NCBI GenBank assembly: GCA_963693365.1
Contig: CAVNZM010000011.1
Coordinates: 3,391,098 to 3,455,097, forward strand
Direction of reading: 5' to 3'
DNA: 64,000 bases
DNA from: Amoebidium appalachense
Lineage: Eukaryota > Protista > Ichthyosporea
Part shown: in pieces, positions 1 through 55,533 of the stretch
Layout: each line of letters begins with the position of its first letter
Position numbering within the stretch: the stretch's first letter is position 1
Position numbers and translations under genes: made by a program
The notes under the pieces: model-generated
The model's database searches: none
What the model was told of the DNA's origin: nothing
Seen by the model: only the letters and a program-made list of their open reading frames with translations

Positions 1-955
1 AGGAGGGGGTTGAACTTGGCCGCAGATTTGGACGTGAACTCGCCCGAGCGCAGGAGGCACGAGCTGCCAAGCAGCAGGGCAGCCCACAGACGCAGGGCCT
101 CCAATGAAGAGCCCGGTTGGATGACTGGGAGGAGGGCGCGGAGGTCGGCTGGGAGGAGGGGCTCGAGCACTCGTTTGGGCCGGTGGCTGCCTTCCAGCAG
201 CAGGAAGCGGCCAGCCCCGCGGATAAACCACTGAAGGCTCTGCTGGCCGGAGCCCGCTGGTGGTGCCATGCCCAAGCTGCGGTGCAGGCTGTTGACGGCG
301 GAGACGATGCTGGGCATGGTCCGGGCTTGCACCGCACGCATGGCGCACCAGGCAAGGAACAGCTGCACTTGGGCTGGGCAGGCTGGCAGGTAGCCACCAT
401 CAGGATTGCGGCAGTCCATTGCGTAGATGAAGTCGATAAACTGGCGCTGGTAGGACGAGTAGGAGGACTCCGTGCTGTCACCCACTGACAGCCGAGTGAT
501 GGTGCGGGCCACCTCCGGGACACAGGCCAAAACCTCGGGGGTGAACCACTGGGCAAGCCTACCATGGTCGCCACCAAAGGGGAGCAAGCCACCTGCAGGG
601 ACAGAGCTGTGTGAGCATCATGCCTAGAGTCCCAGGGGGGGGGGGGGGGGGTAAAGGCAACGAGCGGGGTGGGCGGCAGGCAAGCGGGTGCACAGGCAGG
701 CAAACAAGGGGGGGAGGGGGGGGAGGGGGGCGTAGCTAAAGGGCAGAGGATGCATGCAGCGCTGGCAGGGAGGGCGGGGGAAGGGGAGGGGGGGGTATGC
801 GCGCACAAGCCGCGGTGTAGGCGTGCGTGTGTGTGCGCTAGTGTGTGGGTGTGTATGAGCATGTGTGTGTAACACCGAGGTTAAGCATGCACGATCGAAC
901 TTCGGGGCGGTGGAGGGGGTGGCAGGTGGGGTTGGGGGGGTTGGGGGGAGGGGAA

Positions 956-992
<37 letters not shown>

Positions 993-1070
993 GACACGCC
1001 ACAAGCAGTTGGCACTGCGGGCCAGCACAGAACAAAGAGGCACACCGTGTGTACACCGTAAGACCGTCAT
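1..1070 (-). CDS. Tyrosine recombinase of the retrotransposon (partial; predicted exon 1 1070-1046, exon 2 592-<1)
   Basis: Manual translation of 592->1 is open: ..VGDSTESSYSSYQRQFIDF..VQLFLAW..IVSAVNSLH..LWAALLLGSSCLLRSGEF.. (core-binding helices plus the catalytic Arg motif LRxGE). In-frame stops lie just upstream of the acceptor tgctcac..ccctgcag|G at 593/592. A phase-compatible ATG exon ends at donor G|gtgtgc (1046/1045). Confidence 0.8.
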
Positions 1071-1284
1071 GTATTGTCCCAAACACTCCACCGGGTGAGT
1101 GAGGGAATCCGAGCGAATTCGTGTAGTGGGGGGGGGGCCGGCCCCGGCCGCCACTGCAGAACATGAATCGTGCGATATACAAAGTGGGAAGGGGGGAAGG
1201 GGGGGTGTCGGTGCCCCCCACAGCCCACACGCCAAGCCCAATACGAAGGCAAAGGAACAGGGGAGGGGGCTCGGCCCAGCCCCA

Positions 1285-3172
1285 TCACGAGAGAGGGGCA
1301 GCAAACCACCGTGACCCCGCTAGCCACTCAGGCACGGGTGTTGGGACTGGTGCGTGCCACGGGTGCAGCCGGTCGAAAGTGGCCCACTGTGCCCGCGAGA
1401 TGGCATCCGCAATCGAGTTTTCCACGCCAGGGATGTGCTTGGCCGAGACCAGCACCGTGTAGCGCATTTCCATCAGCGTGATGAGACGCAGCACCCGGGC
1501 AATGGCAGGGACGGGGGAGTGACGGGACGCGATCGTAGATACTGCACCGTCGTTATCGGTGAGCACGCGTATGTGGCTGTTGCGACAGCTGGGACCCCAA
1601 CAGGCCAGGGCCACGGCAATGCCAGCCAGCTCAAACAGCACGGAAGCCCACACATCTCCGCCAGCAATGACCGTGCGCCAATGGTCCGTCCATGCTAGGT
1701 GAAACCACGCTTGACCCCAGTAGCCACCGCATCCTATGCTGCCGGCCGCATCTGTGGTGAACATGTGATGCACGGGGGGGGGTAAGCACACGTATGCCGT
1801 TCCACTCGGGGAGGAACTCCGACCACAGCACAACGTCGGCTCGTGCGTCGGCGCAGACACGGATGTGGTGGTGGGGCCCTAGGCCGGCCCTCTCAGCCTC
1901 CGCCAGCAGATGAAGCAAGCGTTGAAGAAAGGCACGGGCACGCCCCAGCGCCACAACCTGAGCACACCACATGAGCTTGCCGCACAGGGACCGTAGGTCT
2001 CGAACAGTGGCCTTGGTGCGACCCCGCCAATCGGCTAGCAGGGCCCGGAGCTCGGTCAGCTTGACGGCAGGTAAGCGGGCCTCCATGCGCAGAGTGTCCC
2101 ACTCGAGCCCAGAGTAGATGAGCGTGTGTGAGGGCAGCTGCACTTTGTCGTCGGCAAGCGTAACACCCACCTTCGAGCACACCCACCGAAACACCAGCAT
2201 GTTGAAGGCGCACTCTTGCAGCGTATGGCCGCCGAAAAAGAAGTCGTCCACAAAATGCTGTGTCTCTGTGGCGTTGAGGGCGTGGGCGAAGTGCTGCAGG
2301 GCCTGAGCTATGCGTTCCCAGAACGCTGGGCTGGACCGCAAGCCAAACGGTAGGCGGGTCTCCACATAGAACGCGCCTAGCAGCTGGAACGACAGCAGTG
2401 GCTGGTCGTCTGGGTGCACCGGGCCGTGACGAAAGGCACCCTTCACGTCGTATGCCCCGAGGAAGCAGCCCTGGCCGAGCCGAGCTACTGTTTGCATCAC
2501 CGTGCGGATGGTGATGTACTCCAGCTGATCCGGGTAGTCGACCCCATCGTTGATACTGGAGCCACGCGGGAAGGAAAGGTCGTGGATGCGGCGGACGCCC
2601 GTGCCGCCCTTTTTGGGAACTGCCCCGAGGGGCGAGGATACAAAATAAGGATAAAGGGCCACCATCTCGTCGCGGGTGAAGGGGCCCAGGATGTGGCCGC
2701 ATGCCACTTCCTTCGCAATGTCGGCTGCAAGCTGCTCACGGGCCGCCAGCGCGGACGGGTGGTTTCGGCCCACCCGGGTGACCCGCTCGCCGAAGTAACC
2801 GACCGAGAAGCCCAGCTCTAAGTCGCGGAGCAGAGCCTGCTGAAACGCAATGTCGAGGTGCGGAAACAACTCAAACAAACGGCGGAAGTTGGGGACAGAT
2901 ACGGTCTGTGGTGGTGCCGCTGGGTGGGGTGACCATGGGCCCCGCAGGGCAACGGAGAGGGCAGGCCCAGCGCTGACGTCAGCCCCTGCCCGAAAGGGGG
3001 CTGGGCCCCCTAAGCCGGGTTGGCCCCCCCTTCCCCCGCCCCGTTGGCTGGGTTGGGAGGGCAGGCGTGTGCGCCGTGCGCCGCTGAGCCGCACTTCAGG
3101 CAGGCGTGCTTGTAGCGGCAAGGGTTGGGTCCCTTCCTGGTGCAGCCCTTGGCCGTGTTGAAGCCCCGGCAT
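1285..3172 (-). CDS. Reverse transcriptase-RNase H (pol) of the DIRS/Ngaro element; one frameshift at the G-run near 1774-1782
   Basis: RT motifs RRIHDLS, YDVKGAFRH, RLPFGLRSSP, HFVDDFF in ORF 1631-3172. RNase H motifs TDAAG, FELAGI, TDNDG, HIPGVENSIADAISR in ORF 1285-1860. The two frames join at a homopolymer. Confidence 0.88.
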
Positions 3173-4070
3173 ATCTCATCCGCAGCAGGGGCCGGGCTGG
3201 CGCGAGGGCTGGCTGTGGCCCCCCCAGAGGCAGGCTGCCGGGGTGTGCGGGGAGCGGTGGGTGCCTGGTGCAGGCGGGCACCAGACAGGGACACGGCCAG
3301 CTGCACAGCGTCGGGTGCGTCGAGTGGGCGGCCAGAGGCAGCGCACGACCGGCGGTGTGCGTCCTCCCAGCGCATGATGGCAGCCCACTGGTACTCGGGT
3401 GCCAACTCAGTGGCCACAAACTCGGCGTGGGCCAGCAGGGCCGTGACGGGGGCGTTGGCGTTGATGCGTAGGCGTAGCAGCTGCAAGATGCAGCGCAGGT
3501 AGGTCTGCAGGTCCGGGCACAGGGCGGGCTGGCGCTGGGTGCCAGGCGTCTGCAGCACAACCGTGCCAGCAGGCAGGCCAGGCAGGGAAACCGGCTGGCG
3601 CTGCGTGTGGACAGAAGAGCCCGTGGGCGGCAGCAGGTCGAGTAAAGCGAAAAGCTGCATAGGCTCGAAGATGGCAGCCCCCCGGACCTCCGGGGACAGG
3701 TGGGGGCAGGGTGGGTTCGACTGGCTGCGCTGGCTGGCCCCCCAAACGGCCAGTTGCAGGGCATTGGGCGGCGGAGGCAGCTGGTGCATGTCGCCGCCCT
3801 GAGGGTCCTCCTCACGGGGGCGCTTGTTGGCGTTGCCGGGGGGTTGCTCTACAGCATCCACGGCCCCCGCCGCAGCGGCAGGGGGCCCCGTGACAGGGGG
3901 GTTCCTACCGGTTCCGCCCCCGCCAAGGTTGACGAGGTGGGGGAAGGCGCGCAGGAGAAGATCTTGCTGGGAAGGGGGGGCCGGGCTGGCCTGCAGGGCC
4001 TGACGGGTCGCGTTGGCCACCTCAGAAGCAAACATGCGAATGGTCGCTGCCAGCTCAGGGGTCAGGGCAA

Positions 4071-4118
<48 letters not shown>

Positions 4119-4191
4119 CGTCCTGCACAGGAGGGCGCGCCTCCTGCCCTGCCTGTGCTGCAGGGCCATTGTCTGTTGGGTCTACTTCCAT
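3010..4191 (-). CDS. Gag-like ORF1 of the DIRS/Ngaro element (poly-Q tract, C-terminal CCCH finger and CCHC knuckle)
   Basis: ATG at 4191 (MEVDPT). C-terminus CRGFNTAKGC..C-RYKH-ACLKCGSAAHGAHAC. Overlaps the start of pol in another frame. Confidence 0.8.
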
Positions 4192-5440
4192 ACTTGAGCC
4201 GCCGTGTGCTAGCCACCGAAAACGCAATCGTGCTAACAAAAACCGTACGTGCAGCACACGGCGAAAACGAAGGTGGCCTGCATCTGCAGTGTGCTGCGCC
4301 GGAAATACCGGCGCTGGTGGCGCCTGACGTCAGGCGCTGCGCCAGACCGATGTCAGCCGCCGCTGCGGCTGCGCCTGGCGCCGCGGCCCGTGACGTCATG
4401 GGCCGCCCGGCTGCCTGCGCCCGAAGTGATCCGTGAAACATCTTTCATCTGCTGCGCATATGAAACGTACACTTAGTTCAAATGGGCCGAGAAGGTTTGA
4501 CTGCTGGAGCCGCAGTTCATATACCCGGGATGTCGATCTGAGGAATGCGTCCGAAGTCGCTCGACCAATCGCTGTGCAGCGAATGTTTATCCTTTGGAAT
4601 GTGCATGATCTCCAGGGCGCGAACTGGAAACACGGAGTGCCTTTGAACCCGGGTGAGTCGCTGAGGCCCTAGAAACCAATGAGAGAGAGAACTTTTCCAG
4701 TTTTTCAGGCAATAAAAAAGAATAATATGTTTCCTATCATTAGGAGCATGGTTTTTAAGCAGGTGTATGTAAAGGTTCGTACTCTCAGTAGGAACGTACT
4801 TGCCTGCGGATACATGCCATCATGGTCCTAATATTTCGCACCCTGTCACCAGTCCGGCCCGCGCTCCGACGTCTCGGCCCAGTCCCGGTGGTCACAACAA
4901 GAAAAGGGGGGAAAAAACGTGAATGGAGTGAAGGAGGAGCAGAGAGGAGGGGAGGGGGGTTGGAAAGGAGGGGGTGGAGGGGGAGAAGGGGCCTGGGGCG
5001 GGGGGGCCCCGGGGGGGGGGGGGGGGGGGGAGGGGGGGGGGGGGGGAGGGGAGGGAGGAAGGACCAAACTTTCTAATACAGGACCAAATATTAAGTGGGG
5101 ACTCGGCTCGCGAGCCTCGAGGCCTAGGTGGGTCCGGATCCGGTGCGGGGAGGGGAGGAGGAGAGGGGGGGGGGGGGGGGGGGGGAGTATCAGTGCCATC
5201 TCATTAATAATGATGGAGAAAGATCAGGGGGAAGGGGGGCCCGGGGGGGGGAGGGGGGGGGGGGGGGGGAGGCCTAAATAGCTAGGGGGAAATCCGGGGG
5301 CCCGGGAGGAAAGGGCCCGCGGGGAAGGGGTGATTGGGGTGGAGGGGGGAGGGGGGGGGCTAGTGAGTGAAAGCACGATAAATTGGAAATATGGTAGACT
5401 ATTGGGGCCGTGCGTTTCAGAATCGAATGCGCAAGTTTTT

Positions 5441-5476
<36 letters not shown>

Positions 5477-5944
5477 ATCCGCAAAAATTACGTGTAGTCT
5501 GGATGTGGATTTGTACTAAGAATTTGTTTCCTGGGTCAGGCCGCATTTAGGCCCTCCCCCCCTTTCCCTCAATACACACACACATGTATGTACACGCACA
5601 CGCGGGGGGTGCGGGTGGGGGTCGGGGGGGGGGGTCTGGCCAGGGGTGACCGTGAAGCTGGGAAGAGTCTGAGCAGTGACTGCTCAAGGGACAAAAATGG
5701 CGCAATCATGTGAATGATTTGCAGCCAATCAGACGACAGAAATACTCAGTCCGAAAGGCGCCGCACGTAAGATCGTCCTTGCCCGGGATAGTTGCCAATA
5801 CAATTCATGACGAATGTGAATACGGGGATCACCATATTCACATATTCGCCTTTTTCCGGAATATCAGAGTGGGAAAGATGGAATTTACGGTAGGGGGATT
5901 GAAAAGAGGGTCAGGCAGTACGAGAACGAATCAGAGGCACCACC

Positions 5945-6350
5945 TGACCAACTGTGGATGTTAGCAAAACAACTGAAGAGGAAACGAAGCAAAAAGGAAA
6001 GAGGAAAGGGAGCAAGATGAGAAAGTGGAATGGAAGCAAAAAAGAAAAAGATACCAGAAAGAAGGGGGGAAAACGGAAACAAAGCAGAAAAGAAAGAGCA
6101 AAAAAAAAACCAAGAAAACAAAGAGGAAATGAAGCAAGAAAACAAGAAGAGAAAAGAAAGAGAAAACAAAGAAAGAAACTAAGAGAGGAATGAAAGAGGA
6201 AACGGAGCAAAAAAGAAAGAAGGACTAAAGAAGCAAGAAAAGAAAGAGAGAAATGAAAGAGGAAACTCGAAACAAGAAAGATAAGAGGAAATTTTAAAGG
6301 CGCAAGAAAGGAAAGAGGAAACGAAGCAAGAAAGGAGAATTAACTACAAC
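5945..6350. repeat. Purine-rich (GA/A-rich) low-complexity degenerate minisatellite
   Basis: Recurring aagaggaaa/gaagcaagaaa units, almost no pyrimidines on the + strand. Confidence 0.7.
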
Positions 6351-7189
6351 GAGAGCCTCGTGATTCAGAAAGCCAGCCCTCCAGCACGCCGGGCATACCA
6401 TGCTATAAGCTTTAACCCCATTTGGCCACAAATGCGCATCTGTGTGCTGTGTGTGTGTGTGCGCGCGCAGCCCCGAGGGGTTGAAGGGGGGGTGGGGTGG
6501 GTGGGTGGGGGGGGGGGGGGGGGGGGGGGGGGGGATCTGCAGTTGCCTAAATAATCTGTGGTTGGTGGGTGGTTGTGTTGGGCCGCCAAAGGGACCGGGG
6601 GGAGGGACGAGGGGTGGGGTCAAAAAATGGGAGGTAGAGGAGGAGGGGGGGGGGGGGGGAGAGGGGGGGGGGGGGAGAGGGGGGGGGAGGGGGGGGGAGA
6701 GAGAGAGAGGGAGAGGGGGGGGGGGGGCTGGAGGGAGGGAAGGTTGGAGGGAATGGGGTCGAACAAGGACGAGCAAAGTCCAGGAATTCAGTTTTTGGCA
6801 TGACAATGCACAAGATCGAAAGGTTTTCTTAGGGCTAAATCTCTCCGTCCTGCCCCCAATCCCCCCCCCCCCCCCCCTCCCCCTTCCCTCTCCCCCTTCC
6901 CTCTCCACCTCCAACCCCTCTCCCCACCCCCCTTCCCCCCCCCCTCCCCCCCGCCTCACCCCCAGCAACCTCGTTTGATTGCCCTCTTTCTCCTTCTGTA
7001 GCAGGTGTAAAGAGTGTAAATGCTTCCACACCTCCTGTTGATTGAACCCATGCAACCGTTTCTAGAAAGGGAGGACTTGTGTAGATTTCCTTTACGGTGC
7101 ACTTGTGCGCGCGCGTTTGTGTGTGTGTGTGCCCAGCGGGGGGAGGGGGGGGGGTCCCCGGTCCCTCACTCTCCATAGCCCCCGGTGAC

Positions 7190-12349: not shown

Positions 12350-14127
12350 ATGCTGGCTGTTTTGAAGTGCGCACCCGCCCTAGCCCCCGCGCTTGAGGCG
12401 TCTGTTGCGGCAGCTGTAGCCGCAGGGACAAGGAGGCAGCTTGCGAGAAGCTTCCACGGTGCCCGTGCAGCCTGGCAAGGTCTGTGTGTGTCTGTGTGTG
12501 CGTGTGTGTGTGTGCGTTTTGTACCCGTGTGCGTGCGTGTCTGCAAGTGCCTACGTGCGTGTGTGGTTCTTTATTCTCCCTTTTGGCACGTGGAATAGGC
12601 AGGCGGGGTTGGGGGAGAACTTTGACCGTGGAGCTTGAAGGGTTGGTTTGATAATAAAGTTGGAGAAAAGGAGGCATAAACCGCAAGTGACGAAGGGGGG
12701 GGGGGGGGGGAGGGGGGGGGCAGAGGGGAGGGAGGGAGCGAGGAAGGGGGAGGAGGGGAAGAGAGTGAACATGGAGAGGGGGGGTGTGGAGGGGGGCGAG
12801 GAAGGGTTTTGCTTGAAAGGAGGTGCAGGGGATGTGGGCTGCACCCCTTCTTGTGGGGTGTGCGGTGGTAGTGGTGTGGAGGGTCCTTGGGAGGGCGGGG
12901 GAGGGGGGAGGGGGGGGGGGGGGGGACCGAATGTGTCGTTCGAGAAAAAGAATGAAAGTTGTTACACTGATGGGATGCTACCCTTCTCTCCCCTCTCCTT
13001 TCCCCCCTCCTCTCCCCTGCGAAGCCCCTCCCTCCCTTTTTTGGCTCAACACCCCCAACAGTCGTTTTACAAGCTTGAAAGAGCTTTTTCTCTTCACATT
13101 CTATAAGCTGGTGGTGTCTCCGGGCAGTCTTATCTCAGCCGCTCCCCCCCCCCCCCCCCCCCCCCCCCAACCCTCCCCACCCCCTCTCCCCTACCCACGC
13201 ACACATTCTTTGTATTTTTCTTCGTAGCAACCATTGTCTATTTCTCGTGCTTTTCCTCCTCCTTCGCTCCCCTTCCCTCTTTCTCCGTTCTTTCTGTTCT
13301 GTACGTCCTCAACACCACCAGTCCCTCCCCCCCCCCCCCCCCCCCCCCCCCCCCACACACACACACATCACCACCACTTCCCTGGGGTCCGCCCTTTTAA
13401 ATCCCCTGCTCTATTCTTTGGCCCTTACCCCCACGCTTACACTTGCACACTCTTATCCGTCTCTTTGCTCCCCCCTTGCTCCTTCTCTTACTCATCCGAC
13501 TCAATGTCCCCCTGCACCCCCCTCCCCCCCAGGCCCCCACAGACTCTTTCCCTTTCCTTCTCTTTTGACGTTATGCTCCTCGTGTCCCCCCCTCCCTCCT
13601 TCTCCCTCCCTCCCCCCCCCCCCTCCCCCCCCCCCCCTCCCGGTGAGGATGAGCTCTGCTCATGGATGATACGCTTTGTGTGACTCCTACGTAATCTGCA
13701 TGGTGTCGCCCGTTGTGAAGGGGTGCTTCTTACACTGCATAGCTCTCTACCTCGCCCCCCACCTTCCCCCACCCCACCCCCTCCCCCTTTTGCCCACCTG
13801 CCCATTAAGCATCATGGCTAAGCTGCAATGAATGATGACCTCTCACTCTGCCCTGGTGCTGACACCCCTCTGATTTCACGCAGATGACAAGGAGGGAGAG
13901 GAAGCTAGGGAGGGGGCTGAGGGACCCTCTGCCGAGGAGGCTCTAAAAAAGGAAATCGAGACACTCAAGGCTAAGTTGGCCGAGCTTGATGTGAGTGGTC
14001 ACGTACACACACACATGCAACTCCCATACGTGCACGTTTCGTGCCTTCAAAATCGAAGGACATACTCGGGCGGCTGCTCTACGTGCAAGTATGCACGTAA
14101 CGTGTTTCCACTATCCCGGCCCTCCTC

Positions 14128-14162
<35 letters not shown>

Positions 14163-14375
14163 CCTCCAGTTTTTGTGTCTCTATCATGCTCTTTCTGTCT
14201 CATGCACCCACACTGCTCTTACAACTTTGAGCATGCACTTTCACCCCCCCCCCCCCCCCCCCCCACCCCCCCACCCCGCCCCCCCCCCCCACCCCGCCTA
14301 CCTGTCTTCCTCATTGTTTCTCTCTCTCTGTCCTCCCGTTTTTTCCCACCTTTTCCGCCCTCTTCCCCTATTTCC

Positions 14376-14410
<35 letters not shown>

Positions 14411-14928
14411 TTTCCCGTGTCCTCACCCCCGTGCTCGTTGCTGGGCCTCTTCCCTCCTGACCAACTCAATTTAAATTCCGTTTCTTTTTTTCACCCCTTT
14501 GTTGCAGTCTCTCTCTCTCCCCCTCCCCCCCTCTCCCGGGTCTCTTCTGCCCCTCCTCCTCTCCTGCGTGGACACTGTCCGTCTAATTCCGCCTTTTCCA
14601 ATACTGCTTCCCCCCCCCCCTCCCTCCAAACACACACGCGCACGCACACACACACACACAAACACAGGACAAGTACAAGCGCTCTCTTGCCGAGGCTGAG
14701 AACACACGGAGACGTGCCCGTGTGGAGGTCGAAAATGAGCGGCAGTTTGCCATCCAGGGCTTCAGCAAGAGCCTGATCCAGGTGGGTGGGTGTGTTTGTT
14801 TGTGTTTGTTTGTTTTGGGGTGTTTTTTTTTTTGGGGGGGGGGGGGTTGACTGGCGTGTGGGCGGGTGTGGGTGTGGATGTATATTGGCATGTGTGTATG
14901 CACGTGCCTGCGTTTGTTTGGGTTGTGG

Positions 14929-14970
<42 letters not shown>

Positions 14971-15044
14971 TGATAATTTGTGTTTGTGTTTGTGTACCTT
15001 GTTTGTACGTGTGTGCCTGTCGTGGGGGCATGTGTCTGATGGGT

Positions 15045-15078
<34 letters not shown>

Positions 15079-15222
15079 CCCCCGCCCTGCCATAGCTAAA
15101 TCTTTGATCTTTGAGGTGTTATGACGTCACTGGTCTAACCTCTTCCTACCGTGTCTGTTGTGTGTGTTGCCCCCCCCCCCCCCGCCCTGCCCAAACCCCG
15201 CCACGACCACCACCTCCCAGCC

Positions 15223-15288
<66 letters not shown>

Positions 15289-15325
15289 CCCCTTGCTCCC
15301 AATCCTCTCCTTTGTGTCTTTCCCT

Positions 15326-15364
<39 letters not shown>

Positions 15365-15943
15365 AAAAAAAAACGCACACACACACACCACCACCACCAC
15401 CACCACCACCACCCATCCTATCTCTTTCCACTCTAGTTCCCCTGCGAGAGCACACGGTCTCACTCTATTGTCTACTCTCTCAGTGCATTCCGTGCGATTC
15501 CAACCGTCTGCGTGTCTTCCATATCCCCCCCTCCCTCCCCCTTCCTGCTTGCCCGTCATGAATGTGTACTTCGTACTCTGACGCTTACTACCCCCCTCTC
15601 TCCCCCCCCCCCTTACACATGCACACACACACACACCTATGGCATTTTTCTAGCTCCAACTCCAAGAGAGACTGGCCGGTGGAGGGGGGGGAGGGGGTAG
15701 GAGGGGATTTTTCCTATTCTTCAGGGTTCCCTCTGCCATTACCGATCGTTGGTTGAGCGTTAATCCTAAACCAATTGACCCAATCAGGTTGCGGACATAT
15801 TCGATCTTGCAACCAACTCTGTGGACAAGGCGCAGATCGAGAGCAATGGGGCCTACAAGAATCTGTTTGAGGGGCTGACCATGACACAGGCTGAACTCTA
15901 TAAGGTCTTTAAGCGCCATGGCTTGGAGAGGTTCGAGGTGCGT

Positions 15944-15980
<37 letters not shown>

Positions 15981-16053
15981 CCCACAAGGCATGCACATGC
16001 ACATGCACAGGTTTACATGTACTCACGCGCGCGCGCACACACACACACACGCT

Positions 16054-16094
<41 letters not shown>

Positions 16095-16383
16095 AGAGAG
16101 AGAGAGATGAGTGAGTGAGTGATTGAGTGAGTGAGGCATACACGGCGCCTACACCCAGACAGACGCACACGCCCGCACACACACAAACAAAGAGAGAGAA
16201 AGAGAAACAGAGAGAGAGGCATGTACACCGGTGCACACACACACACACATACAAGTGCATGCGCACACACACACACACACACACCTTCCCCATGTTTGCC
16301 CTATGCTGCCTCTCTGGTTGGCCCGTAGCGCTGGTTCTCATCGTTCTCATCGCCTGTTTGCTCATCGTCCTTTTATCCCCCCT

Positions 16384-16414
<31 letters not shown>

Positions 16415-16788
16415 TCCCTTCCACCCCTCTTCTCGGACACACACACGTGCACATCACCATATTCACACACATCCACGTACACACCGCTGCACCCACACAC
16501 GTACATACACTCACACACCCCGCTGCACCCACACGCGTACACAACTTTCCACCTACAGACGTACACACCTTTCCACCCACACACGCACACGCACACACCC
16601 ACCCACACACACGTACACACGTGCAGCCCATGGGGGAGAAGTTTGATCCCAATGCGCACGAGGCGCTCTTTGAGCTTCCAGACCCTTCCAAGGAGCCCGG
16701 CACCGTGGCCGTGGTGCAAAAGTGCGGTTACAAGCTCAACGGCAGAACACTGCGCGCCGCTGCAGTGGGTGTGGTCAGGGACCAGTAG
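12350..16788 (+). CDS. grpE: Mitochondrial GrpE nucleotide-exchange factor (Mge1/GRPEL-like), 5 exons
   Basis: Exons 12350-12479, 13884-13990, 14668-14781, 15788-15937, 16627-16788, all GT-AG and phase-consistent. Motifs [60 protein letters not shown]. Arg/Ala-rich presequence. Confidence 0.95.
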
Positions 16789-20682: not shown

Positions 20683-21616
20683 CGTCACAGGGGGTAGGGG
20701 GAGGGGGGAGGGGGAGGGAGGGGGAGGCCTAGCTAGGAGAGATGACTCGGGACTCGTGAACAACCTGATCAGGGAAGCAAGCAATGACCATGCAGTTAAG
20801 ATACCTCGAGAGAGTGATTGTCCTGATAACCTGCCCTGTGACCCTGTGATTGACCCTGTGATTGACTTCCCCCAACATTGGCAATGCCTCACGATGATCG
20901 TGATCGAGCTCCCCCCCCCCCGGCCCTTGAGCTTCTAGGCCTCCCCTCCTTAATCCCCCCCCCCCCCCCCCCCCCCCTCCCCCCCCCCCCCCCCCCCCCC
21001 CCTCCCCCCCCCCCCCCACCCACCCACCCACCCACCCACCCACCCACACCCAGCCCCCTCCCCCCTTAGTTTTGTTTTGTTCGATGGTCACCACATGATG
21101 GGCCCGTCCGAGACACCAGCCTAAGTCACGGACTATGGTTACAGGGTTAGAAATATAGTCTGGAGACCCCAGCATCATTCATGACCGACACATGCCCGCC
21201 TACTCCTATAACTCACAATTTAACACCTGCCACACCAAAAACTTACTCTCGACGAGGAGATGACAATCGCGATAGTTGTTTGGGATTGTTTTGGCTACAA
21301 ACGGCAAGTGGCTTATAGGGCCCTAACGGCTCAGAATATCCAGGCACAGTTTCGAAACCTGGATAGCGCATTCCAAAGGATAAACATCAACTGCACAGCG
21401 ATTGGTCGCGCGACTTCGGGCGCATTCCTCAGATCGACATCCCGAGTATACAAACTGCAGCTCCAGCAGTCAAAACCCAACAAGTTGCCACTCATCAGCT
21501 CATCCTTCCACGGCTTCGTACTGCTCTGCTCTCCAGCGTTATTGGCGACATCACGCCCATCGCTCTCATACAGACCTTAAGCAACCCTTCCATTACCAAC
21601 CCTGCACCTATCCACC

Positions 21617-22546
21617 ATGGGTCACGACCAGAGCAAGCCCTCTTGCAGCAGCCCTGCCTGCCGCAATGCCGCCTCACGCCGCAGCATCGACACCGTGAAT
21701 TCTCCCCCCGCGGCTGCTGCCCAGCCTGCCGGTGTGGGTCGTCCCCCAGCGGCCGCCAAACCCGCGGCCCTCAGTAGTTCGGCGACCGCTGCTGCCAGTG
21801 GCCGGCGCCGTGACGTCATCGTGGACGACCAGCAGCCGGCCGCAGCCAGTGACGACTTGGTGGTTGTGGGCGGCGTGCTGCCGCCCTTCACACGCACACA
21901 GACGCCCCCAGCAGATACCTCCGCCCTGCCTGGCGCCACCCAGGCTGCCACCCAGGCTGCCACCCAGGCTGCTACCCAGGCTGCCACCCAGGCTGCTACC
22001 CAGGCTGCCCTCCCATGGCCAACACCAAACGTTGAAATCTCCATCCCCGCAGTGCGCCGTGACGTCAACTCGCCCTTGCCGTCTGCCACCCAGGCCGCCC
22101 TTCCTACGGCCATGGAGGCTCTGCCTGCTGGTCCTCCCACACCGCTGCAGACTGTGGATGTGTCACGTGACGGCGTGCACGTGGTGGCCCGCTGTGCGCC
22201 GACCAATAGTGATGAAGGGTTGGATGGGGCCAGTGTGGGTGTGGGAATGGTGGCAGGGGGGGGTGTTGGTGGCGTTGGTGGCATTTGTGGTGTTGGCGGC
22301 GGTGAAGAGGTCAAAGAGGACACAGCGGGGGGATGGGGTGCGTGTAGAGCTGCAGAGCTCCGAGAGTATGGCATAGATCGATATGTGCACCAGCTAGTCC
22401 TTCATGTGATCACAAGAGTACATGTTGACACGTTGAGAATCACTAAACTTCTGTTCAACTTCCAAGTTTCACATGCACACCAAACCTACTATGTATCTGC
22501 CATCGTCGTATACAGTTGTTATTTACGTGCAGCACATGAGCAGTAG
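21617..22546 (+). CDS. Hypothetical Ala/Pro-rich protein (possibly the first exon of a larger gene or element)
   Basis: 309-codon ORF that is not microsatellite-derived. No recognisable domain. Confidence 0.3.
   Translation: MGHDQSKPSCSSPACRNAASRRSIDTVNSPPAAAAQPAGVGRPPAAAKPAALSSSATAAASGRRRDVIVDDQQPAAASDDLVVVGGVLPPFTRTQTPPADTSALPGATQAATQAATQAATQAATQAATQAALPWPTPNVEISIPAVRRDVNSPLPSATQAALPTAMEALPAGPPTPLQTVDVSRDGVHVVARCAPTNSDEGLDGASVGVGMVAGGGVGGVGGICGVGGGEEVKEDTAGGWGACRAAELREYGIDRYVHQLVLHVITRVHVDTLRITKLLFNFQVSHAHQTYYVSAIVVYSCYLRAAHEQ
21935..22006 (+). repeat. 12-bp tandem repeat x6 (GCYACCCAGGCT, encoding ATQA)
   Basis: Six head-to-tail units read directly from the sequence. Confidence 0.9.
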
Positions 22547-43421: not shown

Positions 43422-44160
43422 GGCCCGGGTACGATATCAGGAGCGGGCAATTTTTGAATTCTCCCCCCCGGCCCCGCCGGGGAAAATTTGAGGTTTTTGG
43501 ACCTCAAAGAAGTCAAATCCTGCAAAATCCACTATACCGGGTGGCCAAAAAGGGTGATTTCACAAAAAAGCAGGGTCATACATGAAAAGAAGAAAATAGG
43601 CGAGTTCAGTGGGCTGCCGATGAGTATATTTCGTGCTGCCGGTATACATGCTGCCGTGGTTGTTGCTCTAGACGGCAGTATGGCATTGCATGTGTCACGT
43701 GACCTGCACGTGAATGCGACCATGTGCAGGCACTGAGTCTAGGGGGATTTGTGTGTGTGTTTTGGAGCACCGACAAGGCAGAGCCAGGGTGAGGGATGTG
43801 TAAACATGGAGTTTAGGGAGATCGTGCTGCTATTGTAACATGTGCACAAAACAGCCACGTGCACCACACTCCGGTGTACAGAACAATAATATGCACATGC
43901 GTCACTGTAATTCCAGGTATGCGCATGCCGCACAAGGTTTAGGGGACCACCACAGTAGAGACTATTTTCTTTTGGTTGATATCCATGTAGGAATGGTGTT
44001 TTGCAATTGTCATGGTCAGCCTGAGGCAGGCACGTGCACTCACTGAATTACTAGAACTCATGAATAAAAAATACATTCGCTAGAAATGGCAAGGTAAATT
44101 TGGGGCCAAAGTTATTATTTCCCCCTTTTTAAACGTTTGTTTAGGTCCAAGAACTTCGAC
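43422..44160 (-). repeat. ~740-bp dispersed repeat, copy B (inverted relative to copy A)
   Basis: Reverse complement of 34601-35341 with scattered substitutions. Similarity stops just before the KilA-N remnant. Confidence 0.9.
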
Positions 44161-44190
44161 AACAAAGCTTAACAAGAGAGGCCCAGCACC

Positions 44191-44580
44191 ATGCTATGCA
44201 ATGCCGGCCGCGTATACAACACGGAGAAGACGGGGGACAGTGCTGACAAGCATGTTCTGTTTTGGAGCCGCAAGAATATTGATTTCATCAGCAAAGCCCT
44301 GGAGCGTCTTAACCTGGCAATATACCAAGGAAAGTTGCCCCTGGGCAACATTCCTCCCATTGGTCCGCTGAGCGTCGATGACGTCATCGACACATCGAAT
44401 TCCAAAAAGAAGTCCGGCGATCCTGCGCTGAGGGGCACCTTCGTTCACATTGCGCTGTTCCCTGCTCTTGCCCGCTACGTCTCCACCGACTTTGCCGTAC
44501 ACACGGACGCCCTGCTGTCGCGCATGTTCACGGGCGACTACTCTGTGCTGGCCGATGTCATCGACATCTTGCCCGGGACC
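44191..44580 (+). pseudogene. Truncated KilA-N DNA-binding domain gene at the host/virus junction
   Basis: (ST)MLC start and GTFVHIALFPALARYVSTDFAVHTDALL match the KilA-N pattern (NATKLC..GTYVHxxLxxxxAxWISPxFA). Stop just upstream; runs into host-like poly-G downstream. Confidence 0.7.
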
Positions 44581-44963
44581 TGTGCGTGCGGTTTGGGTTT
44601 GATCGGGTGTGAAAAGGGGGGGGGGGGGGGGGGGGGGGGTTGATAGTGTTTACTGGAATATGTGTGCTGTTTTATTCTCTCGAAGGAGAGTTGGCGAATG
44701 CCAACTTTCCTCCCATTCGCCGACTGGCCTATTTATGAATTTTCAAATAAACGACTATGCCTAACAAGAGAGGCCATTGTTCAAAACGACCGGTGGGTTG
44801 GGTGGGTCACGTGACGAGAAGTTGCATTTGCAACTATTCAAGGGAGATCAAGTAGCATAACCTGGCAATATACCAAGGAAAGCTGCCCCTGGGCAGGATT
44901 CCTCCCATTGGTCAATAAACAACAAAGCGGTTTGTGGAGGGACGGACGGAGCGACGTGACCAA

Positions 44964-45710
44964 TTAGTACATGCCGCGGGGCATGTCTTGTGCCGTGCCG
45001 GCATTCGTCTTTGGCATGCCTAATAAGCGGAACAGCAGATACCCCACGATGGCAAGCACCAAAATGACGGCGACGACCTTGAGCATGCCACCGAACGCAC
45101 CAAACATGCCGGCAAGACCCTCGCTCGACTGTTCGGTAATCTTCTCCAGCTTTGCAGCCGACTCCTGGACCGCCTTGTCGTTCATGATGTTCTCCGACAC
45201 GAGCTCGGCCAGCGCTTCGATGGTCTGTACCTGATTGATTTTCTTGATTTTCAGGTTTCTGTCGTCTTTGATCTCCATCTCCTGCTTCGCGTTCATCACG
45301 AGGGTCAGCGAGCTGTCAAACGCGCGTGTTGCATTGAAGGTGAAGTCGTTGATGGTCTGCGAGAACGTGTCGCTGGAGTTCTTGCCGCTGCTGCCCAGCT
45401 CGGTCTTCTGCTTGAGTTTCTCGTTGAGCTCCGCTTCCAACTTACTCTTGAACTCGTTCGTGCTCTGGGTCTTCTGTATGGCCTTGATGTTGATCTTGAC
45501 GCGCTGGAGCTGATTAATTTCGCCGAGGTCCGCACCCGTGAGACCCGAGATCGTCATCTTCTGGTCCGTCATGGTTGAGGCGCTTACGCTCTGATCAACC
45601 TTGATGCTCGTGGACACGGAATTGCGGACGATGTTTTGCAGCGTCGTGGTCGTGCTGTTGCCACAGTCGCCCATTCCGAGTATACACACCATCTTGTCGT
45701 CTGGATACAT
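44964..45710 (-). CDS. Virion membrane protein, poxvirus L1R/F9L-like myristoylated envelope protein family (start uncertain: 45710, 45692 or MG at 45674)
   Basis: MGDCGNSTTT.. followed by an S/T/N/Q-rich helical body with repeated Q-x-I-x-I / INQxQ motifs and one C-terminal TM (VVAVILVLAIVGYLLF). Confidence 0.75.
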   Translation of the reverse strand: MYPDDKMVCILGMGDCGNSTTTTLQNIVRNSVSTSIKVDQSVSASTMTDQKMTISGLTGADLGEINQLQRVKINIKAIQKTQSTNEFKSKLEAELNEKLKQKTELGSSGKNSSDTFSQTINDFTFNATRAFDSSLTLVMNAKQEMEIKDDRNLKIKKINQVQTIEALAELVSENIMNDKAVQESAAKLEKITEQSSEGLAGMFGAFGGMLKVVAVILVLAIVGYLLFRLLGMPKTNAGTAQDMPRGMY

Positions 45711-45774
45711 TCAGGCGCGGCGGACCAGCGGGCAGCGCCATTTTGCCTGTGAAATATTTTCTCCCCGCACGGTA

Positions 45775-46344
45775 ATGGACCGCTGTTCATCGAAGCGCAG
45801 CCTGAGCGACAGCGACGAGGACATGTGTGACACGGCGGAGACCAAGGCCCTGTGTCTGCCCAGGCCCCCACCCCCCGAGGTCACCCTGCCCACGGGTGTG
45901 GCCACAACCAACTACAGCAAGACCCAGATCCCACGCCCGGCCATGAACGAGATCAAAGCCGAGACCGACCCAGTCAAGGTTGAAGGACTGAACTTTATTG
46001 TTATGTCGTGTGCCGCCCAGGGCCTCGACCAGGTGACAAGCGACAACCAGTGCGGCATGAAGATCCGCGGGGCGTTCAACACCGTGGAGGAGGCCAACGC
46101 GCACGCCCGGGTGCTCCAGGAGAAGGACCCGTTCTGGGACATCTACGTGGCACCCATGTACGAATGGTTTGTGGTGCCGCCCAAGACGGTTATGTGCGAA
46201 GAGGTGGTGCATCCTAACAAGACCATGGAGGAGATCATGAACAACGAGCTGCGCCACAGGCACCAGCTGGCCGAAGGCCTAGAGACACGCATACAGGACG
46301 CAAAGAACGAACTGAACAAGCAGGACATGATGGTGGACTCCTAG
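45775..46344 (+). CDS. Conserved NCLDV protein (DUF5832-like)
   Basis: GMKIRGAFNTVEEANAHARVLQEKDPFWDIYVAPMYEW motif typical of this giant-virus family. ATG at 45775. Confidence 0.75.
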   Translation: MDRCSSKRSLSDSDEDMCDTAETKALCLPRPPPPEVTLPTGVATTNYSKTQIPRPAMNEIKAETDPVKVEGLNFIVMSCAAQGLDQVTSDNQCGMKIRGAFNTVEEANAHARVLQEKDPFWDIYVAPMYEWFVVPPKTVMCEEVVHPNKTMEEIMNNELRHRHQLAEGLETRIQDAKNELNKQDMMVDS

Positions 46345-46356
46345 ACACAGACCGGA

Positions 46357-47055
46357 CTACATGGATTCCTCGGGTGGGAGCAGGCAGACGCCGTTGGGAA
46401 GGTTGGTGCCGTCGGCCTCGTCGGGAGGTAGCACGCGGATCTGGAGGGCAAACAGGCGCACCTCGAGCTTGCCGTCGAACTCGACACGCTGGCCCTTGCG
46501 CTTGACGCCGTTGTAGATGCCCACGGACTTGATCTCGCCGGCGACGCGCACGTTGGGCAGGTTGGGGCTGTTGAACACGGCCAGCACCTGCTCGCGGTCC
46601 ATGGGCTTGCCGCTGGCGTCAAAGTAGTTGGCGCCGGAGTCGGGCACCAGGCGGAACTTGATGGACTCGATGCGGTCGACGAGGCACGAGCGCATGCGGT
46701 GGTTGATGGCCATCTCGTCGGGGATGGGGTCAAAGTCGGAGAACGCCAGCTCGGCGTTGGCCACGGCCCAGGAGACCACGGCGGCCTCGAGGTCGCGGAC
46801 GGCCGAAATAAAGCTGTCCAGCTGCTCCTGGCATCCACTTGAAGGCGCGTACTGCGAACAGTCCAGCGAGTTGTACTCCTCGTTGGGGGGGAACTTGCAC
46901 TTTAGCAGGGGGGTGTAGAAGCGGATGGGCTTGTTCTGGCGGCGCACAGGGAAGTAGATGGCGGTGTGGTTGCCTGCCCTGTTGCTCTCCAGCTTGGAGG
47001 GCCCGATGGTGATGTCGCGGCCATGGATGGCTTCTGTCCAGTGTGCGAACTGCAT
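46357..47055 (-). CDS. Putative NCLDV single-stranded DNA-binding protein (T7 gp2.5-like OB fold)
   Basis: PIRFYTPLLKCKFP, FISAVRDLEAAVV, IKSVGIY, LQIRV pattern with an acidic C-terminal tail. TATA box 42 nt upstream. Confidence 0.6.
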   Translation of the reverse strand: MQFAHWTEAIHGRDITIGPSKLESNRAGNHTAIYFPVRRQNKPIRFYTPLLKCKFPPNEEYNSLDCSQYAPSSGCQEQLDSFISAVRDLEAAVVSWAVANAELAFSDFDPIPDEMAINHRMRSCLVDRIESIKFRLVPDSGANYFDASGKPMDREQVLAVFNSPNLPNVRVAGEIKSVGIYNGVKRKGQRVEFDGKLEVRLFALQIRVLPPDEADGTNLPNGVCLLPPEESM

Positions 47056-47090
47056 GTTTGCGAGCGTGGAAATGAGGGCATGCGAGCTTC

Positions 47091-47099
47091 TTTTATACC
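47091..47099 (-). promoter_or_regulatory. TATA box (GGTATAAAA) upstream of the SSB gene
   Basis: The same motif precedes four other viral genes at a similar distance. Confidence 0.65.
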
Positions 47100-47114
47100 T
47101 TCTGGGGGGTGGCC

Positions 47115-47420
47115 TCAGGCCGGCATGCCGCCGCGCCACGCGTCCTGGAACGCCATTTCGTAGGTGACCGCGCGGTTCTTCTCCATCGGGTACGAATGGA
47201 TCATGTCCCTGGGCTCGAGACGCACGGCGTACATGGATGCCGGGACGGCCGTACGTGGAGTTGTGTAGCGGTTTGCGGCTTCGAGGGCGGTGTAGTCCAG
47301 GCGCGTGGAGCGCTTGCCCCTGTCACTCGTCGTGCTGCGCACCTGCACCTCGTTCATGACCATACCCATTGTAAGGTCGTTTTGGTTGGAGAGCAAAATG
47401 CGACCGTAAGAATCAGCCAT
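47115..47420 (-). CDS. Hypothetical viral protein
   Basis: 101-aa ATG ORF filling the gap between neighbours. AATATT motif 11 nt upstream. Confidence 0.6.
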   Translation of the reverse strand: MADSYGRILLSNQNDLTMGMVMNEVQVRSTTSDRGKRSTRLDYTALEAANRYTTPRTAVPASMYAVRLEPRDMIHSYPMEKNRAVTYEMAFQDAWRGGMPA

Positions 47421-47458
47421 GAGCTATGGCAATATTTTTTTTTTGGAGGGCCCCGCTA

Positions 47459-47704
47459 ATGGAGATCAACAACAACACGCTCTTGCTGCTGGCCATCGTT
47501 ACCATCTGGTACTACTGGTCGCAGCAACCGCAGGCGCCGCCGCCGCAGAGCACGTGTCCCCGGCATTCCAACTACGTGCCCGTGCCCATCGCCGTGGCGC
47601 CTGTCAAGGTGGACGTGGACCCCAGAAACGACATCACCAACACCGCCAAGGACGGCACCGACCTGCGGAACGTGCTCAACACCACGGTGAGCTACGTGAT
47701 CTAA
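47459..47704 (+). CDS. Small viral membrane protein (N-terminal TM)
   Basis: MEINNNTLLLLAIVTIWYYWS..; GC3-rich codons like the other viral genes. Confidence 0.65.
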   Translation: MEINNNTLLLLAIVTIWYYWSQQPQAPPPQSTCPRHSNYVPVPIAVAPVKVDVDPRNDITNTAKDGTDLRNVLNTTVSYVI

Positions 47705-47709
47705 ACATA

Positions 47710-48372
47710 TCAGAACGTGCCTGCCAAGACGTGTAGTGAGTCGATACCCCCGGCCCCGTAGGCCATGACGCCACGCCCACCCGCCGCCCACCCTTGCCCC
47801 CAGCTGTTCTGCACCAGCCAGCCGCCCCTGGCATCGTCCCAACCGAACACCATCACCGCATGCCCGCCCACGGGCCTTTCACCCGGATCCGGTGTCCACG
47901 TCTCCTCAGGGCCAAGCCGCTTCATCGAGCGGTGTTCGAGCACGTGCATGGCGACAGGCCCGTTCCTCTGTATTTCCCGCTTGATGGCACATGACCCGTG
48001 GCCCTGCATGTCCGTGAATGAACGCAGTTTGATTCGACCTTTGTCCGTGAGCACGCCCACGCGGCAGGCGTGCATGTGTGCCTTTACCAGCGTACCCCCC
48101 ATGCAACCCCTGTTTCCCAGTGTGTTTTGGAGAAGGTCGTCAGTGTCGACGGTCACCTGCTTGCCGAGCTGGACGGCGATGCGCCCATGGAGCGCAGCCG
48201 ACGTGGCGTGCGCCCAGCACGAGCCACACCGTGCCTGGTAGCCCACGGGGGCAACCACCGCGGGGGAAACGTCGAGCCAGCTGAACCGAGATGGAAGCGG
48301 GCGGCAGTATGAGCGCAGGAACAGAACCAGGGCGCACACGATCAGTGCGAGTAGGAGGAGGGGAACGGTCAT
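47710..48372 (-). CDS. Papain-like (C1A) cysteine protease with N-terminal signal/anchor
   Basis: QARCGSCWAH (catalytic Cys), GCMGG, GGHAVMVFGW (His), WLVQNSWG (Asn). Confidence 0.9.
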   Translation of the reverse strand: MTVPLLLLALIVCALVLFLRSYCRPLPSRFSWLDVSPAVVAPVGYQARCGSCWAHATSAALHGRIAVQLGKQVTVDTDDLLQNTLGNRGCMGGTLVKAHMHACRVGVLTDKGRIKLRSFTDMQGHGSCAIKREIQRNGPVAMHVLEHRSMKRLGPEETWTPDPGERPVGGHAVMVFGWDDARGGWLVQNSWGQGWAAGGRGVMAYGAGGIDSLHVLAGTF

Positions 48373-48409
48373 GTGTGACGGCACGTTTTTTATTTTGTCC
48401 CGTACTGTA

Positions 48410-48640
48410 ATGGATGAAGCAGCCAGCAACCCCAAGGACACCACCCCCAACGCACCCGAGCAGCAGCCAGACACCCCGACCGAAACCGCTGCCACCAGTC
48501 CCGTGCCAGCAAGGCAGGGCATGGTGGTACGGGCGGGGACACCGCAATTCTTCCTGATGGTGTTTCTTGTGACCGTTGCGGCGGCCATCGTGGGCACGCT
48601 GCTGGCTGGGTACATCGGTTCGCGGTTTTTGACGAGCTGA
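48410..48640 (+). CDS. Small viral tail-anchored membrane protein
   Basis: P/T-rich N-terminus and a C-terminal hydrophobic helix FFLMVFLVTVAAAIVGTLLAGYI. Confidence 0.6.
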   Translation: MDEAASNPKDTTPNAPEQQPDTPTETAATSPVPARQGMVVRAGTPQFFLMVFLVTVAAAIVGTLLAGYIGSRFLTS

Positions 48641-48675
48641 GGTGGTCAGGTTACGGATTTTGCCTGCTGCTGCCA

Positions 48676-48852
48676 ATGGCACGCCGGAGACACGGATTAC
48701 GGAGACGCACGCAGAGACGCCCACGTCGCGGAGGCTTGAAACGCGAACAACTACAAAAGGCATTTGAACTGGGGCTGCTCGATTCGCCTTACTCGCTGGG
48801 CATGGACCGCAGGTGTCTACGCGGGATTCTGGGGCCGTGTGGGTCCTCGTGA
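48676..48852 (+). CDS. Small Arg-rich viral protein (58 aa)
   Basis: Manual translation MARRRHGLRRRTQRRPRRGGLKREQLQKAFELGLL..; below the ORF-track cutoff; fills an otherwise empty gap. Confidence 0.5.
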   Translation: MARRRHGLRRRTQRRPRRGGLKREQLQKAFELGLLDSPYSLGMDRRCLRGILGPCGSS

Positions 48853-48876
48853 GCACGGAAACAACGCCAGATGTAG

Positions 48877-49182
48877 ATGCGAGGCAAGAGGGACAAGTGG
48901 CTGGCCCAGCAGCGCCAGCGCACACAGCACCAACTGTGGCAGCAGCGACAGCTGATGAAGCAACGCCTGCGCCGATACCGGGAAGTGGGACAACTGAAGG
49001 TGCGAAACAATATGGAGCTCAAGCGGATGTTAGCAACGCGCAAGAAGGCGCTCCGGATGCTCGATGAGGTCACGCGCGACATAGCGCGAATAAGGCACAC
49101 GTCGGCCGGTCCGTTGGTGACGGAGCTTGCCCTGCTGACGGAACAGGCACTTGCGCTGGACGCGCCCGGCCAAAATAAATAA
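48877..49182 (+). CDS. Hypothetical basic coiled-coil viral protein
   Basis: 101-aa ATG ORF in tandem with its neighbours. Confidence 0.55.
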   Translation: MRGKRDKWLAQQRQRTQHQLWQQRQLMKQRLRRYREVGQLKVRNNMELKRMLATRKKALRMLDEVTRDIARIRHTSAGPLVTELALLTEQALALDAPGQNK

Positions 49183-49193
49183 CTCAGGCATGT

Positions 49194-49742
49194 ATGGAAA
49201 GACACAGTGCAGTCGCCACAACGGCCGTGAGGCCACAGCCCCTCCCTGAACCTAGCTACAGCAGACAACAGCTGCGTGCGGAGCTCCGCGGCCTACGCCG
49301 GGATGCCATGCAGCGGAAACGACAGGAGCAGGAGGTGGCCCAAATGATACGACATTCCACAAACCGTGCCATCAAACGACTGAAGCGGTCAACGGCTCAG
49401 GCCTCGGGCACCGCTACGACGGGTCAGCGCATCAAGGACATCGAGATGCGCATACAGAGGGTGCTGCAAGGGGCTCGGTTGGTGGCCCGGGGTAGGGAGC
49501 GATTGGGGGAAGAGGCCAGTGACCAGCTTCTACGGATTTACCACGCAACCGACCGACTCATCCAGACGCGAAGAGCAAACGAGGCCGCGACGGCCAAGTG
49601 GCGGGGGCTCTATGAAGAGCTTGCAAAGCTGGGCGAGAAGGTAGGCAAGGCTTTGCAGGAGGATAGGCTGGCGGGATTGCAGGCGAGGGCCCAACAGGGT
49701 GGCACAGTCATAAATCAGGTATACGGTGGGCAGTCCGGTTAA
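49194..49742 (+). CDS. Hypothetical coiled-coil viral protein
   Basis: 182-aa ATG ORF, helical and R/Q/A-rich. Confidence 0.65.
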   Translation: MERHSAVATTAVRPQPLPEPSYSRQQLRAELRGLRRDAMQRKRQEQEVAQMIRHSTNRAIKRLKRSTAQASGTATTGQRIKDIEMRIQRVLQGARLVARGRERLGEEASDQLLRIYHATDRLIQTRRANEAATAKWRGLYEELAKLGEKVGKALQEDRLAGLQARAQQGGTVINQVYGGQSG

Positions 49743-49764
49743 AAATGTGGTGCGATCATATAAC

Positions 49765-51042: not shown

Positions 51043-51178
51043 TAAAACAAATGCGTACACAGTGTAAATGCGTGCTGTTTGGCTCCTTCTGTTTCTGTTG
51101 TTTGTCGGCGCTGCCGTCTTTATTTGGACTAGCCCGTGAAGGGCTCGGTTAAAATGATGTTTTCTTCATGCTCGTGGG

Positions 51179-51391: not shown

Positions 51392-51446
51392 TCTAACAGC
51401 ACTGCCGAATAAACGGGGAGCTGCCAACCGTTGGGCGCAAAACCAC

Positions 51447-51722: not shown

Positions 51723-51778
51723 TATACCCTACCACCAAATTATATCGAACGGCTGCTGTCTGGAGGCATTTTGGCGGT

Positions 51779-53626: not shown

Positions 53627-53680
53627 GCCTACAGGTAGCTGAGAAAATAAAAAGTGAGGGGGTTTGGTCACCGCGCGGCC

Positions 53681-53783: not shown

Positions 53784-53822
53784 GCCGGCACACACCCATA
53801 CAACCATCACATCTGCAGCAAC

Positions 53823-55523: not shown

Positions 55524-55533
55524 TGTTGAGGTC

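Follow-up and report, generated by a model that had tools for sequence, protein, structure and literature searches.

Candidate splice signals ahead of the recombinase gene of an Ngaro-type retrotransposon in Amoebidium appalachense

Results

Gene content of the locus

The window, the whole 64,000-nt stretch of the Amoebidium appalachense genome analyzed here, begins within a retrotransposon. A reading of positions 1-7000 revealed gag, reverse transcriptase/RNase H and tyrosine recombinase (YR) in that order, all on the minus strand, which is the ORF order of Ngaro elements. The gag-like ORF (3010..4191) encodes 393 amino acids with a C-terminal CCCH/CCHC-like zinc knuckle and begins at ATG 4191 in a strong context. 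It has no Pfam match, and its C-terminal part matches the gags of two related loci, L022 (E 2e-11) and L033. The pol gene (1285..3175) encodes reverse transcriptase (RVT_1, E 3.5e-10) and RNase H and ends with the stop codon TGA at 1287-1285. The RNase H part is 46% identical to the protein P0001, up to the end of P0001. A methyltransferase domain after RNase H is absent; the pol stop lies approximately 30 codons past the ADAISR motif, as it does in P0001, and no room for the domain is left. According to the portions of PMC3783388 and PMC3266345 available, a methyltransferase domain in pol is a feature of DIRS1-like and PAT-like elements, and this hallmark was not found in the pol of the element. 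The anatomy agrees with the definition of Ngaro in the accessible parts of PMC3783388, PMC3266345 and PMC13465315. By ORF order and domain content, the element is an Ngaro-type YR retrotransposon. A search with the reverse transcriptase gave no matches in viral contigs.

The copy in the window was compared with contigs of four runs (X1, X10, X11 and X18) over positions 1-4900; these were taken from 24 runs listed as containing the stretch, none of them on record as RNA. X1 is a DNA run that may derive from another strain. An RNA origin of X10 and X18 is a guess, and the longest X10 record is 45 kb. The 5' edge of the element was placed at 4471/4472, where the depth of an X1 contig falls from several hundred to approximately 19 at 4472. 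Depth in X1 is 279-366 across the element body, compared with about 19 on the flank, a ratio that suggests some 15-19 element copies, although depth is not a copy number. The element is likely present in several copies per genome. The drop at 4472 and loose contig ends delimit a 276-nt 5' terminal repeat on the minus strand (repeat A, 4196..4471). The X10 and X11 contigs that contain 4196-4471 have loose ends on both sides, X1 depth reaches 832 on 4265-4471, and the contigs reveal a second copy of the repeat with constant neighbours, which is predicted to lie past the left end of the window. Ngaro elements have split direct repeats (A1...B1 A2 B2), and in the window copy the B repeat falls outside the window. 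Direct repeats are found in the related loci L025, L039, L065 and L070, among 31 loci of at least 5 kb.

A C run near 1774 shifts the reading frame of pol in the window copy. The X1 and X11 contigs are one base shorter there and read through, and the X10 contig has the same length at this run as the window copy. Near 1308 the window copy carries 6 extra bases that are absent from all four runs. Three other features of the element and its surroundings were seen. At 2944 an X10 contig with one third of the element depth exits the element into unrelated sequence, perhaps marking a truncated subfamily. On the 5' side (4472-4900), an X1 contig reaches through the flank up to 4472 and then continues for approximately 180 letters foreign to the element, perhaps because of an empty site or a paralogous flank. 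A 109-nt repeat with 91% identity occurs in opposite orientation at 4496-4604, just beyond the 5' edge, and at 21366-21474, where it precedes a 321-codon low-complexity ORF (21581-22543).

Elsewhere in the window, a five-exon host gene on the plus strand (12350-16788) contains four GT-AG introns of 677-1404 nt that are rich in poly-C and CA tracts. From its motifs we take its product to be a GrpE-like co-chaperone. The last 20 kb (44000-64000) are gene-dense and hold 3 poly-C/G runs in 20 kb, compared with 6-23 per 4 kb elsewhere. This block encodes an NCLDV major capsid protein (55741-57129), VLTF3 (61889-62986) and Erv1/Alr (59307-59756), together with a papain-like protease, DUF5832, DUF4379 and KilA-N, and is an endogenous giant-virus segment. 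Such blocks are known from protist genomes, as stated in the part of PMC11244446 available.

A recombinase fragment that lacks a start codon

The 5' part of the YR gene occupies positions 1..592 on the minus strand and extends from the core-binding domain to LRSGE, its first catalytic Arg motif; the remainder lies beyond the window. The fragment itself matched no Pfam family, and word-indexed searches with it returned no match. Its assignment is based on Atlas matches of 0.96-0.98 to core-binding/Phage_int_SAM_1 clusters, a weak match to the N-domain of Cre (E 0.04) and 74 protein matches at E 0.001 or better. With phmmer the fragment matches the YR ORFs of related elements, down to E 2e-14; these are the ORFs that follow pol in the related loci, and three of the six tested score above the Pfam Phage_integrase cut-off. 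Matches to the element include basidiomycete and sponge proteins. Both the X10 and X11 contigs stop at 479 (479/480), and an X1 contig continues to 651.

The initial annotation stated that the recombinase frame is closed just upstream and has no usable ATG ahead of the domain, and both statements are correct. In-frame stops are located at 626-624 (TAG) and 620-618 (TGA), and the first in-frame ATG, at 419, lies 19 codons past the conserved S codon of the ST..Y motif (476). Translation could in principle begin without splicing, on a full-length RNA or an internal one, by non-AUG initiation, by reinitiation or by a frameshift from the out-of-frame ATG 565, with the splice-like sites described below being coincidences or by-products of protein motifs. 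ATG 565 stands in a strong context, and the frame it opens continues across YR with no stop codon. The stop of pol overlaps a start codon in TGATG (1287-1283), and in the available portions of PMC3783388 the YR ORFs are described only as in frame, frameshifted or overlapping. However, no indel capable of bringing ATG 565 into frame is present in the X1 contig, and a start hidden there by a frameshift error was rejected on that ground. The ATG at 1285 meets a stop in the window copy short of YR, and a route from pol to YR would need two recoding events over 692 nt. Expression without splicing is therefore regarded as rather unlikely, also in view of the codon usage of related families given below.

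The spacer and the proposed mini-exon

Pol and YR are separated by a non-coding spacer of 692 nt on the minus strand (593..1284) that contains poly-C and CA tracts. Since the spacer has stops in all three frames, simple frameshifting from pol to YR is excluded here. Deep contigs cover 1-651, 1004-1166 and 1129-1284. A Pol-YR fusion through the GTGATG at 1288 was considered as well and rejected; that site is phase 2 and requires an acceptor at 607, which overlaps the branch-like motif.

The initial annotation proposed that a mini-exon (1046..1070, minus strand; 25 nt, MTVLRCTH) supplies the start codon and is joined to the recombinase across a 453-nt host-style intron. The bases are present in the window copy: the exon ends in phase 1 at G|GTGTGC, and removal of 1045-593 (453 nt) keeps the frame. 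The start codon is not kept among copies. ATG 1070 is ATT in the X1 contig 1004-1166 (depth 292 of 292), X1 being the only one of the four runs that covers the site. The spacer offers 21 combinations of an ATG with a phase-1 GT, and the mini-exon is no more than expected by chance. The poly-C and CA tracts do resemble host introns, with a C content of 0.53 compared with 0.34-0.50 in the four introns of the GrpE-like gene, but the non-coding flank has them too (13 runs of C8 or longer in 4472-7000). The tracts were therefore rejected as evidence of an intron and taken to characterize the non-coding DNA of the genome.

A broader form of the same proposal is an internal spacer transcript that would start at ATG 1070 in the window, or at ATG 1164 in the family contig, and be spliced from 1046 to 592. 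Its donor, ACG|GTGTGC, lies in phase 1 and is similar to the host donors GTGCGT and GTGGGT, and a 453-nt intron is nearer to the lengths of host introns than one of 3.3 kb is. In the X1 contig the C run at 1128 is one base shorter, which places ATG 1164 in frame with the donor at 1045 and gives an exon of 118 nt, but this frame depends on the length of a homopolymer. ATG 1070 and ATG 1164 both stand in contexts poor for a start, with a pyrimidine at -3 and a base other than G at +4. Moreover, most relatives have no spacer that could hold a mini-exon, yet they have the acceptor-like site, and neither candidate exon resembles the upstream residues of the closest recombinase relative. A short intron of this kind is considered unlikely. 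The alternative of a host-style intron captured by the recombinase gene is not borne out by the relatives, which point instead to a phase-1 donor within gag; positions 593-1045 more probably form the 3' end of an extended alternative intron, in the manner of retroviruses, that spans pol.

The acceptor-like site at 593

The YR frame starts immediately after a splice-acceptor-like site on the minus strand (593..615) that is phase 1 to YR and consists of a branch-like CTCAC (615-611), a pyrimidine tract and CAG (595-593). The bases are as the initial annotation reported them. The conserved S codon follows 116 nt downstream, and the sequence of the site is unchanged in the X1 contig 1-651 (depth 366). 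It is the sole site of its class in the 4471 nt of the element sense strand, where shuffles give an expectation of 0.97. The site exceeds the chance expectation: the probability that one of this class falls in 620-540 is ~0.035 under a rule that was chosen after the site had been seen, a level that leaves some room for coincidence and to that extent favors expression without splicing. None of the four host acceptors fits the rule, which is thus uncalibrated on this host. The features of a U2-type intron (GT, branch-like site, pyrimidine tract, YAG and compatible phase) are found with the donor at 3908 and the donor at 1045 alike. The acceptor at 593 is probably used in splicing.

The alignment to the closest relative of the recombinase, P0121 (48% identity), starts at LPFG, three codons past the acceptor, and does not reach further upstream. 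The gene call of P0121 starts at a Met 39 residues ahead of the homology, and the 36 residues upstream of the homology are rich in Pro (28% vs 10%) and unlike the mini-exon. They look like read-through of pyrimidine-rich DNA.

Among the joints listed for contigs of the four runs, none falls at 593, 1046, 2920 or 3909, which does not imply that splicing is absent, as X10, X11 and X18 have no real cover at 480-633 and 985-1128. The X10 contig 3701-4014 crosses 3909 unspliced. An approximately twofold depth of YR over pol in X10 and X18 was set aside, since depth cannot rank parts of a gene.

A candidate donor within gag

The top-scoring donor within gag, CCG|GTAGGA (3903..3911, minus strand), ends a putative exon at 3909, past gag codon 94, and is phase 1, equal to the phase of the acceptor at 593. 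It would serve as a shared donor. Scores were computed with ad hoc weights, on which the site at 3908 scores 6.5, the site at 1045 scores 6.0, a phase-0 site in pol 7.8 and host donors 6.3-7.8. The donor is formed by adjacent GGT (2 of 32 Gly codons) and AGG (2 of 25 Arg codons), with a joint value of 0.005 and 2 such pairs. The same G|GT-AGG form at Gly-Arg is found in five related gags, all of one clade. Taken alone, the donor at 3908 is modest, with P 0.105 under synonymous shuffling.

A candidate acceptor for pol is also present. It is a weak phase-1 site before the conserved start of pol (2920..2935, minus strand; CAG 2922-2920), with 2986 as an alternative. The C tract at 2925 is longer in all four runs than in the window. 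In relatives, the best acceptor ahead of pol is phase 1 in 8 of 13 cases, two rows of which are misaligned.

Splicing into 593 could instead proceed from another donor: the second-best gag site, CCC|GTGAGG at 3815; one of the phase-1 donors in pol, at 2739 and 2439; or a multi-step path through a cassette exon (1153-1046). The site at 3815 is likewise phase 1, but scores 5.2 compared with 6.5 at 3909. CAG 1154 and the donor at 1045 bound a 108-nt in-frame cassette exon in the window copy, whereas in the X1 contig the exon has 107 nt and breaks the frame. The best donors in the RT regions of relatives have no excess of phase 1 (4 of 12). Use of any of these donors appears quite unlikely.

Splice-like signals in related families

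A metagenome scan yielded 244 loci, of which 80 were kept. Among these, 52 have an alignable YR start and fall into 28 families at less than 75% identity. Most of the 28 have 8-62 nt between the stop codon of pol and the S codon. A Met upstream of the YR motif is absent in 13 of the 28, lies within 12 residues of the motif in nine, where initiation would cut helix A, and is further up in six. No start codon is conserved among the families.

Acceptors were counted on 26 families, two having been dropped because the motif at the end of RNase H is lacking. In 20 of the 26, the first YAG downstream of this motif is in phase 1 relative to YR and is followed by the S codon at a distance of 119-143 nt, compared with 116 nt for the phase-1 acceptor in the window; six have no phase-1 site at the motif. 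The Ala codon of the ADALSRFQ motif is GCT in 15 of 26 families against a background of 22% (p 1e-4), and the first Gln codon at the motif is CAG in 21 and CAA in one, with none in four (background 54%; p 2e-5). In sequence, the codons of the motif resemble a branch point with a tract and an acceptor. The need for the protein motif leaves this choice among synonymous codons unexplained, as it does the donors in gag, and both observations argue against expression without splicing. In the pol of the window the motif reads GCG GAT and the branch-like form has been lost. The shared acceptor phase partly mirrors a single inherited geometry of overlap.

The best donor is phase 1 in all 13 of the non-redundant gags, which were picked by a zinc-knuckle pattern; in the control regions it is phase 1 in the 4 of 12 RT regions noted above and in 10 of 23 YR regions. 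The donors of relatives lie at homologous Gly-Glu or Gly-Arg codon pairs common to the members of a clade. The 13 gags amount to about five clades, and synonymous shuffles alone return phase 1 at rates of 34-82% for individual gags. Because the gags and families are kin, the significance of the shared donor phase is estimated to be nearer p 0.02-0.05 than 4e-5.

Two related loci also have a short AT-rich spacer between pol and YR (L015:3270-3510 and L021:1690-1790). At the end of each spacer is an acceptor-like site that is T-rich, in phase 1 and 53 nt upstream of the S codon, and in-frame Met residues are found at -25 and -16. In a fungal gene model, P0147, an N-terminus that looks Gag-like precedes YR. 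It is a lead only.

Discussion

The results presented here indicate that the recombinase of an Ngaro-type element in A. appalachense has neither a start codon of its own nor an open frame connecting it to pol. It is reasonably likely, on the evidence of sequence comparison, that a 3.3-kb intron removes pol and yields a fusion of Gag residues 1-94 to YR, while the unspliced RNA serves as template. A single transcript would start from repeat A. Left unspliced, it would provide Gag and the template for reverse transcription. Splicing from 3909 to 592 would remove a 3316-nt intron made up of gag past codon 94, the whole of pol and the spacer, and would join Gag and YR in frame. The same donor may also be spliced from 3909 to 2919 to give Gag(1-94)-Pol. 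New copies would keep the intron because the unspliced RNA serves as template. The initial annotation had proposed that splicing serves the recombinase and that unspliced RNA is copied. That general idea is favored on comparative grounds, and the gene model with the mini-exon is not.

In most relatives the acceptor-like signal lies within the last RNase H codons (ADALSRFQ), where pol and YR overlap. In the family of the window the acceptor lies in a separate non-coding spacer that has since filled with host-type simple repeats. It is possible, although we hold this only tentatively, that throughout the Ngaro group a single phase-1 donor in gag is joined to either pol or the recombinase by alternative splicing of the retroviral kind, the recombinase acceptor usually being in ADALSRFQ. 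If so, the family of the window would serve as a natural experiment in which splicing can be told apart from frameshifting. In most families the overlap of pol and YR fits frameshifting and splicing alike. In the present element the 692-nt spacer closes every frame, which leaves simple frameshifting out, and the splice signals still match in phase.

The known Ngaro elements (fungal, Cafeteria burkhardae and Xenopus families) have the same gag, RT/RNase H and YR on one strand, lack a methyltransferase and carry a long recurring 5' repeat. Unlike these relatives, pol and YR of the element described here neither overlap nor abut, but are set apart by the repeat-rich spacer. Splicing is not mentioned for such elements in the available portions of PMC3783388, PMC3266345, PMC6681497, PMC4157794, PMC9210276 and section 11 of PMC8547959, and the strings 'intron' and 'splic' have no occurrences in the text available from PMC3783388, PMC3266345 and PMC9210276. 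No description of spliced expression in Ngaro was found in the literature searched; the reviews by Goodwin/Poulter and Poulter/Butler, which lie outside that search, may discuss it. Nor does the literature searched address how a start-less Ngaro recombinase is translated, noting only overlapping or frameshifted ORFs.

Introns that persist in RNA-mobile elements have precedents. Penelope-like elements carry introns, and a Rhizopus DIRS1-like element is reported to have introns within its YR gene, a case on which the literature searched yielded no text. The element in the window would share with these the retention of introns, but theirs are ordinary introns inside one ORF, whereas the alternative intron here would contain the whole pol gene. 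Retroviral env mRNA is made by splicing. In retroviruses and LTR retrotransposons, as proposed here, the unspliced RNA is the genome, the spliced RNA is an mRNA, and the intron survives reverse transcription. The spliced product of those systems is Gag or Env, whereas here it would be a tyrosine recombinase on Gag residues 1-94. Splicing of env is mentioned in general terms in the accessible part of PMC5035971, and the part of PMC5580714 available describes conserved alternative splicing for Copia Gag in plant Ty1/Copia elements (shGAG). DIRS-1 can reverse-transcribe an unspliced marker RNA, according to the available text of PMC7192593.

Finally, the splicing proposed here, if true, would add a recombinase retrotransposon to the elements that separate template from mRNA through host splicing. 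It predicts a Gag-recombinase fusion protein, and the annotated N-termini of Ngaro YR proteins would be wrong. If splicing holds across the group, the proportion of template to recombinase would depend on the host spliceosome, and the N-terminus of Gag could tether the recombinase to the particle or guide the choice of target.
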